IMG/VR virus record: IMGVR_UViG_3300023082_000008
Location: 64,001 to 126,020 of that record
Source: a virus
Taxonomy: Duplodnaviria; Heunggongvirae; Uroviricota; Caudoviricetes
Length of the DNA: 62,020 nucleotides
Strand: one strand, 5' to 3'
Positions within the stretch are counted from its first letter, which is position 1; each line of letters opens with the position of its first letter. Positions 1,668 to 16,119 of this stretch are shown piece after piece. Both the position numbers and the translations under genes were made by a program. The notes below the pieces were generated by a model, which worked only from the letters and a program-made list of their open reading frames with translations, was not told where the DNA came from and searched no databases.

Positions 1668-1676
1668 ATTCTAACA
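1668..1676 (-). promoter_or_regulatory. extended -10 promoter of the leftward operon
   Basis: Minus strand TGT-TAGAAT, 7 nt before ATG 1660. Confidence 0.65.
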
Positions 1677-1682
1677 TGCGTT

Positions 1683-1726
1683 GCCGCCCTGCGGGCGGTG
1701 CGCCTTCGGCGGGTCGCTTCGCTCCC
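1683..1726. other. three adjacent GC-rich mini-hairpins with GNA triloops on the minus strand
   Basis: CCGCCC-GCA-GGGCGG (1684-1698), CGCC-GAA-GGCG (1701-1711) and GC-GAA-GC (1716-1722), followed by an AT-rich tract at 1727-1744. Confidence 0.7.
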
Positions 1727-2118
1727 ATGATTTTTTAAATTTTAGGGAAGACATAACCCAGAACAAGACATAGTTCGGCTTAAAGAAAGGTACGACCACA
1801 AACCAGTGAAAGCCTAAGCCCGGTACGGTGTTTGTACTCACCTTACGTTGGTCCGGTACCCGTCAGGTCTCCCTATAACGGCCCTAATCTACCAACCACC
1901 GGTTGAATCTCTCCAACCCTAAGTGGAAGCCTCGCACTGGGGGAAAAAGAACGATCCCCAGCGGAGGAGTGCAGTTTTAGAACCGTCAAGTAGAAAAACA
2001 CAACATCTCAACACTGGGGACCAGATTGGGAAATCAAATTTGTTTAACTGCTTGACGGTTCCTGCCCACCAAGTGTAACACAACTGATTTCCCAAACGCA
2101 AACAAGCGCTCTCGTGCT
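1727..2118 (-). ncRNA. candidate large structured non-coding RNA (unknown family)
   Basis: Own -35/-10 promoter, no credible ORF. Helices 2026-2036/2085-2095 (11 bp perfect), 1980-1990/2051-2061 (11 bp perfect, crossing the first), 1937-1942/1956-1961, and 1743-1752/1867-1875. Confidence 0.5.
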
Positions 2119-2171: not shown

Positions 2172-3098
2172 ATGGAATTAGAAATGTATGGAATCTCTGC
2201 CCGTAATGACGGTTTTGGTACTGCTGGCAGACAAATTATGGCATCTATGGAACGTTGTGGAATTGATATTGTTAAGAAATCTGATGTTTCCTTAACGTTT
2301 TCTCAGCCTCATCAGTTCAAGGCTCCGAGCAAGTATAACATTGGTTATTTTCCTTGGGAGTCCAGTGAGCCTTGGCATAAGATGAACTGGTTACCGCGCC
2401 TTGAGAAACAGGACGAGTTGTGGGTCACATCACGCTGGCAGCGAGACATTGTTGGCGAGTGGGGATACGATAACATTTATGTCTACGAGCATGGCATAAA
2501 TCCGATCTGGGAGCCTGTAAAAAGATCGGTGGGGGATAAGGTCACTTTCCTTTTCATGGGCCTTGAGGCGCTTAGGAAGGGCGGTATAGAGGCTATTAGA
2601 GCCTTTAACACGGCCTTTAAGGGAGTAGATGACGTAGAACTGATTGTCAAGACCCAAGGCTCCATCATGCAATCACCATTCCCTAAGATCAGATTTATCA
2701 ATCAAGATATGAGTTTTCCAGACTTGGTTCAACTTTATGGGAATTGTCATGTGTTTGTAGCACCAACATATGGCGAGGGATTTGGACTACCGGCCCGAGA
2801 TGCAGCCGGTACAGGTATGCCAGTCATTGCTACCTCGGGATTCCTACCTTACGAAAAACTACTATCAGACAAATTGCTTATCAAATCAGGTTTAATTGAC
2901 TCTCCATGGCCAGATATTCATCCGGGAAAAATGTTCAAGCCAGACCTTGATGATTTGGTGGGACGGTACCGGTATGCTTATGAACATATTGAGGAACAAA
3001 TTGACGAGGCCCATAGAAAAGCACCACGCATTCATGCCCAATACAATTGGGATTCTTTGACACAAGAAGCCTTTTCACGCTTGGCTTTAAGAATCTGA
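2172..3098 (+). CDS. glycosyltransferase, GT-B fold (family 1/GT4-like)
   Basis: EGFGLPARDAAGTGMPVIAT motif, YFPWESS, HGINP, RKGG. Start moved to ATG 2172 by promoter geometry. Confidence 0.88.
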   Translation: MELEMYGISARNDGFGTAGRQIMASMERCGIDIVKKSDVSLTFSQPHQFKAPSKYNIGYFPWESSEPWHKMNWLPRLEKQDELWVTSRWQRDIVGEWGYDNIYVYEHGINPIWEPVKRSVGDKVTFLFMGLEALRKGGIEAIRAFNTAFKGVDDVELIVKTQGSIMQSPFPKIRFINQDMSFPDLVQLYGNCHVFVAPTYGEGFGLPARDAAGTGMPVIATSGFLPYEKLLSDKLLIKSGLIDSPWPDIHPGKMFKPDLDDLVGRYRYAYEHIEEQIDEAHRKAPRIHAQYNWDSLTQEAFSRLALRI

Positions 3099-3148
3099 CA
3101 ATGCTAGACTTGACATAACAAATCTTTTATGAAAGGTGGGAAATACTC

Positions 3149-3614: not shown

Positions 3615-3905
3615 ATGACTGACGAAACCAAGAATGACAAGCCAGAAGAGGCAACAGACAAGTCCGTAGACAAGGGCGAGTTCGTTGCTCCAGAATCGGG
3701 CAACGCACCAACCGCTACCGCTTACCTAGGTAATGACGAGTGGACTGGTACTGAGCCAATTCTACAGGGGTCACCTTACTACCACAATGGTCGTCTGATT
3801 ACCACTCAGGAAGAACTTGACGCAATTCGCAAGGAATTCGACGAGTACGCTAAGAACGACGAAAATGTAGTTAACCCCGGCGGCGATCCAAAGCCAAAGA
3901 AGTAA
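3615..3905 (+). CDS. acidic hypothetical protein
   Basis: Strong SD GAGGAGGT, 96 aa, followed by a terminator. Confidence 0.75.
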   Translation: MTDETKNDKPEEATDKSVDKGEFVAPESGNAPTATAYLGNDEWTGTEPILQGSPYYHNGRLITTQEELDAIRKEFDEYAKNDENVVNPGGDPKPKK

Positions 3906-15180: not shown

Positions 15181-15213
15181 GTGTTTGAATTGGAGCAGTG
15201 ATACACTGTAGAT

Positions 15214-16119
15214 ATGGACGTGCCAAAGGGTTATATCTCAAAGATCAAAATTCCTGTACCGGGTGATGTAGACGCATTTATTGGTGTCACTCGCTCGGAT
15301 ATGGTCATTGGGCCAGCACTACAGGTCACTGCATCGGGTGGAGTACTAGAAGTAACTCTACCGTACAAGGCTACGCACGACGAAGGCGTTGTCAACCTTT
15401 TGGTTACATTCGAGATTGACGGGGAAGAATTCAATCGTTCTCTTGACGTCAATGTTGTCACTCCATACATTGAACTTCACGAAATCAAGGATATTTTGGG
15501 TGATGCAGCAGACGACCAAGAATGCTTTGACGCAGAGGCCGCAGCCCGTCAGATCATTAATGCTCACACGGGTCAGGAGTTTGGTTTGTTTGTAGGAACG
15601 GTCAAAGTTCTTTCAAATTATGATGAAGCGCTTCCATTGCCACGTCGTTTGATTGAGCCAACCAAGATCGTGGCCGGTACCATTCCGATCTTTGATCGTG
15701 ACACACCCACCTCATACCTAAACTTCCTAGGAGAGAATCAATTTGTGACTACCGGCTCAGGTTGGTTCCTCAAGCGTCCAATCTGGTCATCTTCCATCAT
15801 TGTGGGAGACATGTACTCGTCCGATCCAATTGAGGCTCCACGCTTTACTGGTGTACACAAGTTCGACAACGATGTTGAATACACCATCACAGGCAAGTTT
15901 GGATACGAATCTGTTCCAGAGCCAGTACGTCAGGCAGCGAAGATTCTCACTGAACAGTACGAATGTGCAGACCGTGAGTACCGCGAGCAGTACCTAGAAT
16001 CTATCAAGAGTGCAGACTGGCGCATCCAGTTTAATTCTGGCGCATACCGTCGCACGGGCAATGCTCGTGCTGACAAGTTGCTGTCACCATATGTAATTAA
16101 CCGCGCCAAGGTGATTTAA
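15214..16119 (+). CDS. head-to-tail adaptor/connector
   Basis: AEAAARQIINAHTGQEF...GKFGYESVPEPVRQAAKIL...ADKLLSPY, plus position in the head-tail block. Confidence 0.75.
   Translation: MDVPKGYISKIKIPVPGDVDAFIGVTRSDMVIGPALQVTASGGVLEVTLPYKATHDEGVVNLLVTFEIDGEEFNRSLDVNVVTPYIELHEIKDILGDAADDQECFDAEAAARQIINAHTGQEFGLFVGTVKVLSNYDEALPLPRRLIEPTKIVAGTIPIFDRDTPTSYLNFLGENQFVTTGSGWFLKRPIWSSSIIVGDMYSSDPIEAPRFTGVHKFDNDVEYTITGKFGYESVPEPVRQAAKILTEQYECADREYREQYLESIKSADWRIQFNSGAYRRTGNARADKLLSPYVINRAKVI

Follow-up and report, generated by a model that had tools for sequence, protein, structure and literature searches.

The interval from 2117 to approximately 1944 on the minus strand of the window is probably an independent gene that encodes a structured small RNA (sRNA) not previously described, and the fold of this RNA may be switched by the choice of transcription start site. 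The RNA represents a new family of a familiar general kind, namely phage regulatory sRNAs with a terminator. The window, i.e. the whole 62,020-nt stretch analysed, makes up the right half of an IMG/VR virus record of 126 kb from a leaf litter sample. Its glycosyltransferase (GT) shares ~40% identity with the GT of Streptomyces cluster BE phages, in which the genes from GT to ribonucleotide reductase follow the same order; the phage is a soil actinobacterial relative of that group. The region of interest, 1661-2171, is the gap separating a leftward gene block from the rightward GT gene, whose ATG is at 2172 on the plus strand. The leftward block encodes a 73-aa protein (start 1660), two small proteins, a HIT protein and ThyX. 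Searches of the three small neighbouring proteins against Pfam and PHROGs gave no match, nor did a protein search with the 73-aa neighbour as query. The tmRNA and 36 tRNA genes of the phage are located in the other half of the genome, outside the window.

The sequence-only reading had proposed a leftward promoter, TTGCGA-17-TGC/TATACT at 2152-2124, and this was borne out by a promoter scan and by conservation in relatives. This promoter of the sigma-70 type, P1 (2124-2152, minus strand), comprises a -35 TTGCGA (2152-2147), a 17-nt spacer and TGC plus TATACT (2132-2124), with a predicted start at ~2117-2119. The TTG of the -35 and the pattern TGnTAnnnT are kept in all relatives, and one distant relative (L050) has hexamers identical to those of P1. 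An internal promoter, P1' (TGTTACACT, 2072-2080, minus strand), lies between the helix arms H2a and H1a described below, and its TGTGnTAnnCTT is invariant in 5/5 phages. The form of P1', TGnTAnnCTTG, also occurs upstream of the genes at window positions 3102, 4034 and 42297 (six sites found compared to 1.9 expected). P1' could be a conserved RNA motif instead of a promoter.

On the plus strand, the GT gene is preceded by an extended -10 read from the sequence, TGGTACTCT (2157-2165), in which TGnTAnnnT is kept at the same place in seven loci. As its hexamer is only 7 nt from the GT ATG, the GT mRNA would be leaderless. Sequence comparison revealed a further promoter, P2 (TGTTAGAAT, 1668-1676, minus strand), 7 nt ahead of the ATG (1660) of the 73-aa gene and kept as TGnTA(G/C)AAT in L008-L010. 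The mRNAs of the 73-aa protein and GT genes are probably both leaderless; leaderless mRNAs are common in actinobacteria. The presence of a non-coding stretch with its own promoters, followed by a separate leaderless P2, indicates that the next gene is independent and that the RNA would be its own transcription unit.

Contigs of relatives were reached via GT homologues in a large protein collection. A homologous block of ~190 nt, directly downstream of the leftward promoter, was present in four of these metagenomic phages, L007, L008, L009 and L010, whose GT proteins are 74, 69, 63 and 63% identical to that of the window, respectively. The block was absent from L011 (GT 63% identical) and from the more distant loci L012/L013, L014, L016, L050 and L051. 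In L012/L013 the distance between the start of the 73-aa gene and the GT gene is 53 nt, with nothing between, and the whole unit can therefore be regarded as an insert between two back-to-back leaderless promoters. A BLASTN search of the region against 50,697 phage records gave no match. Scans of IMG/VR and JGI metagenomes with the GT produced only two distant loci, both lacking the element, and a motif-pattern scan of IMG/VR gave 15 matches compared to ~18 by chance (our own estimate), none of which was confirmed by the covariance model.

The similar-sized intergenic region of Streptomyces phage EGole was considered as a counterpart and rejected, as it holds a bidirectional terminator and is unrelated in sequence. 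In this phage (L004), an annotated 95-nt tRNA-Arg at 3758-3852, called by ARAGORN and falling below the Rfam tRNA threshold, overlaps a large hairpin resembling a bidirectional terminator and is probably a false call. Separately, L016 carries a 108-aa RF-1-domain (ArfB-like ribosome rescue) gene at 2678-3004, directly upstream of GT and beside a 786-nt gene-free stretch.

The structure of the element is defined by three helices, all on the minus strand. Two perfect 11-bp helices had been proposed, 1980-1990 with 2051-2061 and 2026-2036 with 2085-2095; both were verified, with a chance expectation of ~0.01 for such an inverted-repeat pair here by our own estimate, and both are kept by compensatory change in relatives. 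The first, H1, joins H1a (GAACCGUCAAG, 2051-2061) to H1b (CUUGACGGUUC, 1980-1990), identified by inverted-repeat search and covariation. The second, H2, joins H2a (UUGGGAAAUCA, 2085-2095), which is present solely in transcripts starting at P1, to H2b (UGAUUUCCCAA, 2026-2036). A third covarying helix, Pb, had been missed. It pairs Pb-a (UGGUCCCCAGUG, 2012-2023) with Pb-b (CGCUGGGGAUCG, 1952-1963) over 12 bp, and H1b lies inside the loop that it closes. From 5' to 3' the order is H2a, P1', H1a, H2b, Pb-a, H1b, Pb-b and a U-rich tract, such that H2 crosses H1 and H1 crosses Pb, all three being supported by covariation. The pseudoknot inferred earlier is thus correct in that the two 11-bp helices cross, but they may belong to alternative folds and not to one static pseudoknot.

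Covariation was found in H2, H1 and Pb among the window and L007-L010. In this set of only five sequences, two of them 76% identical, aligned by a covariance model fitted to H2 and Pb, 92.3% of pair cells were paired compared to 75.4% in shuffles, and 18 of 32 pairs were changed on both sides compared to 7.8 in shuffles. Neither value was attained by any of 500 shuffles, and a control with partners slid by 1-3 columns gave 35-47% paired. When cognate arms were compared with arms swapped between phages, cognate pairing ranked first for H2, third for H1 and second for Pb among 120 permutations. MAFFT alignments misplaced H2 in all phages and H1b in L009 and L010; in the model alignment, H1b of L010 remains out of place, making the counts for H1 conservative.

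For H2, 8 of the 11 pairs change on both sides across the five phages, and L007 keeps the helix via two G-U pairs on the minus strand. The almost complete difference in H2 sequence between phages argues against a protein-binding DNA repeat. In Pb, pairing extends to 100% of the cells, and both sides differ in 6 of the 10 pairs that were counted; its three minus-strand G-U pairs in the window are A-U or G-C in the other phages. The core of H1 is the paired part with the highest sequence conservation, and the compensatory changes here were G>U with C>A in L008 and AAG>AGA with CUU>UCU in L009. In its extended form, H1 comprises 19-29 bp with 1-6 G-U pairs across the phages. The minimum free energy of the minus sense was below that of the plus sense in 5/5 phages (e.g. 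-62.3 compared to -50.2 and -66.7 compared to -45.5 kcal/mol). Together, the G-U pairs and the folding energies point to an RNA on the minus strand.

The RNA had been expected to span ~400 nt; the conserved and significantly structured unit proved to be the 5' ~170 nt only (about 2117-1944). This domain folded below 200/200 shuffles (z = -3.39). The 3' half (1677-1935) folded no better than shuffles (z = -0.72) and is without counterpart in L007-L010. Most of it is taken up by a variable region, D2 (1731-1934, minus strand; z = -0.72), which had no BLAST match among the loci and is common only to close relatives (88-96% identity) on short contigs from air, compost and wastewater runs. A 9-bp bulged helix suggested within it, 1743-1752/1867-1875, exists in the sequence but is unsupported; the region is unconserved and folds like shuffles. 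A relative from a compost metagenome shows changes and deletion at 1745-1756, with 1867-1875 free of listed changes. Of the four helices put forward originally, this one and the next do not pass comparison among relatives. The 6-bp helix reported at 1937-1942/1956-1961 is likewise present in the window but is weakly kept (cognate rank 19 of 120), the conserved partner of 1952-1963 being 2012-2023 and not the 1937-1942 side. In that hairpin the loop contains the U-tract, and Pb-b pairs with Pc (CCCCCAGUG, 1935-1943, minus strand), which may serve as its alternative partner. Pc forms 8 bp in the window, is weaker in L007 and L008, and is at best a weak alternative.

Downstream of D2, directly before P2 and after an A-rich tract, 1683-1730 (minus strand) contains three GC-rich hairpins with GNA triloops that abut P2 where a -35 would be. 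L008-L010 likewise have a GC hairpin here, adjoining the -10. These hairpins are possibly a second stop, a U-less terminator or an insulator. Within the variable 3' region, a further extended -10-like site (TGGTAGATT) was seen at 1886-1894 on the minus strand, where two environmental relatives have TAGACT and one has TAGATG; a second small transcription unit from this site is possible. In addition, a common block of 78 nt (77% identical) was observed in the variable 3' regions of L008 (2499-2576) and L016 (1987-2064). As the two intergenic inserts differ in other respects, this suggests that RNA-like modules at this slot are exchangeable.

The likely 3' end of the ~170-nt RNA is the U-rich tract UUCUUUUU (1944-1951, minus strand), which directly follows Pb. 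A U-rich run follows the 11-12 bp stem of Pb in 5/5 phages, and conservation among L008-L010 stops at the U-tract. The loop of Pb, however, is 48 nt, unusual for a terminator; a terminator scan flagged only a local 5-bp variant at Pb, and the U-tracts are imperfect in L008 and L009. At the same slot in L014, L050 and L051, a leftward promoter is followed within 70-100 nt by canonical terminators. L050 has TTGCGA-17-TATACT and then a 14-bp stem with a U-run, and the terminator of L051 has a stem of 11 bp and U5. In L014 the sequence of the Pb stem occurs as a homologous plain hairpin, CCCCCAGCG, an 11-nt loop and CGCUGGGGG, before a U-rich stretch. Based on these terminators of distant relatives and the L014 hairpin, Pb and the U-tract are read as a putative terminator, its loop enlarged to 48 nt and now holding H1b. 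The L014 slot (2700-3000) itself contains two tandem promoter-terminator units of ~75 and ~95 nt, the second of which closes with the Pb-like hairpin, immediately followed by the SD and ATG of an HTH_20 gene.

The stretch had been described as lacking a credible ORF, and no conserved ORF was found within 1661-2171. The longest reading frames differ between phages. An ORF at 1919-2152 was rejected as coding, since substitutions in the alignment of the window with L007 are spread evenly over codon positions (12/17/14) and the indels are of 3, 5, 1, 1, 1 and 2 nt. As in terminator-ended sRNA genes, a housekeeping-type promoter lies upstream and no conserved ORF is present. Apart from the promoter-like TGTGnTAnnCTT, no unpaired block is invariant; the loops and linkers differ in both length and sequence, and no conserved ligand-binding core, i.e. 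invariant unpaired junction nucleotides, was found in the five phages.

Searches of the whole window against Rfam 15 (4227 models) at the gathering threshold gave no match, including to riboswitch families. At E <= 10, the interval 1500-2400 matched only snoRNA and U11 models at chance level (E of 1 or more), and the loci of the relatives gave no Rfam match. The earlier statement that the element is not recognisable as a tRNA or tmRNA holds: ARAGORN found none in the window and RF00005 had no match. A tmRNA identity, considered because of the adjacent RF-1-domain gene in a relative, was rejected as RF00023 matches the whole record (G000) at 15204-15591, so that the tmRNA of this phage lies outside the window. 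Sequencing runs recorded as RNA were also searched for the window stretch, and none contains it. In one wastewater run labelled RNA-Seq cDNA, a close relative is represented by a contig of 201 nt across 1789-1933, which was rated as probably DNA.

How the fold might depend on the start site was explored with constrained nested folds. The P1 transcript prefers the fold with H2 and Pb in 4/5 phages, and the P1' transcript, which does not include H2a, prefers the extended H1 rod in 5/5 phages by 3-13 kcal/mol. The folds differ by 1-12 kcal/mol and the preference flips with the 5' end, a shift that is partly by construction because removing H2a removes H2. As these energies ignore pseudoknots, all three helices might coexist. 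With Pb and the U-tract acting as an intrinsic terminator, transcripts from P1 would form the H2 and Pb hairpins and then stop, giving the ~170-nt sRNA, whose two large loops would carry the complementary arms of H1. Transcripts from P1', without H2a, would instead fold into the long H1 rod with the 5' arm of the terminator in its tip. The rod would take up the sequence next to Pb-a and leave Pb-b for its weak downstream partner Pc, which may favour read-through into the variable 3' region. The RNA would in this manner be a fold switch set by its start site.

The core of H1 also recurs elsewhere in the genome. The sense form of H1a, GAACCGTC(A), occurs in 10 copies on the plus strand compared to 1.9 expected, and in 2 copies on the other strand. 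As (G)AACCGTCA(A), of 8-10 nt, left-arm copies are found at G000 6334, 11869, 18134, 26804, 29063, 34137, 37760 and 50659, and copies in the window at 1981 and 2060. Eight motif copies are located 2-33 nt upstream of plus-strand ORF starts, six of these being 5-98 nt after a tRNA gene, and the motif may be a processing, translation or sRNA-target signal. H1b is antisense to the GAACCGTC copies. Because the sense copy recurs upstream of at least eight phage ORFs, a role of the H1 sequence in trans is possible. In the most complete form of the fold-switch model, the long isoform would correspond to the terminator fold and a released ~170-nt sRNA, the short isoform to the anti-terminator rod and read-through, and the H1 motif would link the switch to a set of phage genes with the same motif of 10 nt shortly ahead of their start codons; as a whole, this model is put forward tentatively.

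The same motif data bear on a second explanation, that the element is a static, double-pseudoknotted RNA acting in trans, with H1, H2 and Pb formed together and two hairpins kissing via H1. Either H1b would be an antisense seed against GAACCGUCAA in 5' UTRs, or H1a would be a decoy for a motif-binding factor. The H1 core is the most sequence-conserved paired part, GAACCGTC is enriched on the plus strand with eight copies just ahead of ORF starts, and the best genome-wide duplex of the H1b region outside the locus is a motif site (-27.5 kcal/mol). That duplex, however, is barely beyond the random tail, where several reach -26, and H1b is buried in a helix of 11-29 bp. Furthermore, L008 has altered both arms of H1, yet a canonical GAACCGTCAAC copy remains in its leader, and a 20-kb stretch of a more distant relative is without motif enrichment. 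We regard a static trans-acting RNA as doubtful; if the 5'-UTR motif of L008 were to co-change with its H1b (e.g. GAACCTTCAAG), trans targeting would gain support.

It is unlikely that the element is a cis-acting leader of the leftward operon (73-aa protein, HIT and ThyX), i.e. a riboswitch-like or protein-dependent attenuator of transcription from P1. Its placement between P1 and the operon, the terminator-like Pb with alternative folds, and the Pb-like terminator of L014 directly ahead of the SD and ATG of the next gene are all consistent with such a leader. The operon, however, has its own conserved leaderless promoter with GC hairpins ahead of it, and 200-450 nt of unconserved sequence separate it from the element. 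The long helices and variable loops are also unlike ligand-binding aptamers, and no riboswitch family matches. Very improbable is an element acting at the DNA level or in priming at the site of divergent gene orientation, either a replication origin with a priming transcript or a set of protein-bound inverted repeats: the tandem promoters with an A/T-rich tract and stable GC triloop hairpins downstream of them, a cumulative GC skew minimum at ~1-2 kb of the window and the recurrence of the H1 motif in the genome would suit it, but the skew change is explained by the coincident change of gene orientation alone, the H2 arms diverge freely yet stay complementary where protein sites would keep their sequence, and the G-U pairs and energy asymmetry point to pairing in a minus-sense RNA.

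To our knowledge, hardly any non-coding RNAs have been charted in actinobacterial phages. In this case, five sequences sufficed for clear covariation of a large three-helix RNA outside the catalogued families, located at a divergent early control region in a group of relatives of the 130-kb Streptomyces cluster BE phages. The simpler promoter-terminator sRNA units at the same slot in distant relatives suggest a conserved position for regulatory RNA with exchangeable bodies. If the fold switch by start site is true, it would be an unusual and easily testable coupling of promoter choice to termination, and if the link to the H1 motif is true, a phage sRNA regulon would be defined.

Among known systems, the element resembles ColE1 RNA II and the T7 primary origin in that its promoters are in tandem, its predicted transcript is structured and untranslated, and an A/T-rich tract lies downstream; it differs in the putative U-tract terminator after the structured domain and in the lack of conservation of the downstream part. 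Like 6S RNA, it is ~180 nt, with tandem promoters (an abundant-type arrangement) and a -10-like sequence inside the RNA; unlike 6S RNA, it is not a rod with a central bubble, and there was no Rfam 6S match at E <= 10. Cluster BE-like phages carry tmRNA (PMC5764925). The element resembles tmRNA (RF00023) as a pseudoknot-rich RNA of a few hundred nt but is without a tRNA-like end or a tag frame.

The terminator-like helix with its Us, the competing helices and the near-equal fold energies are reminiscent of attenuators and riboswitch platforms (trp leader, PyrR or TRAP). In the element, however, the competing helices would exclude each other by crossing and have no common strand segment except Pb-b with Pc, and neither a leader peptide nor a conserved junction resembling a ligand pocket was found. 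The proposed trigger also differs, being start-site choice, which we do not know as a described attenuation signal in phages.

The small RNAs lambda OOP, P22 sar, DicF and IsrK are encoded by phages or prophages and end in an intrinsic terminator. The element is unrelated to them in sequence or by Rfam, its helices are much longer and cross, and it has an internal second promoter and no overlapping antisense partner gene. In common with these RNAs, it has its own promoter, no ORF, a length within 70-200 nt and hairpins of which the last is apparently a stem with a U-run, and it is located in an early regulatory region between divergent operons.
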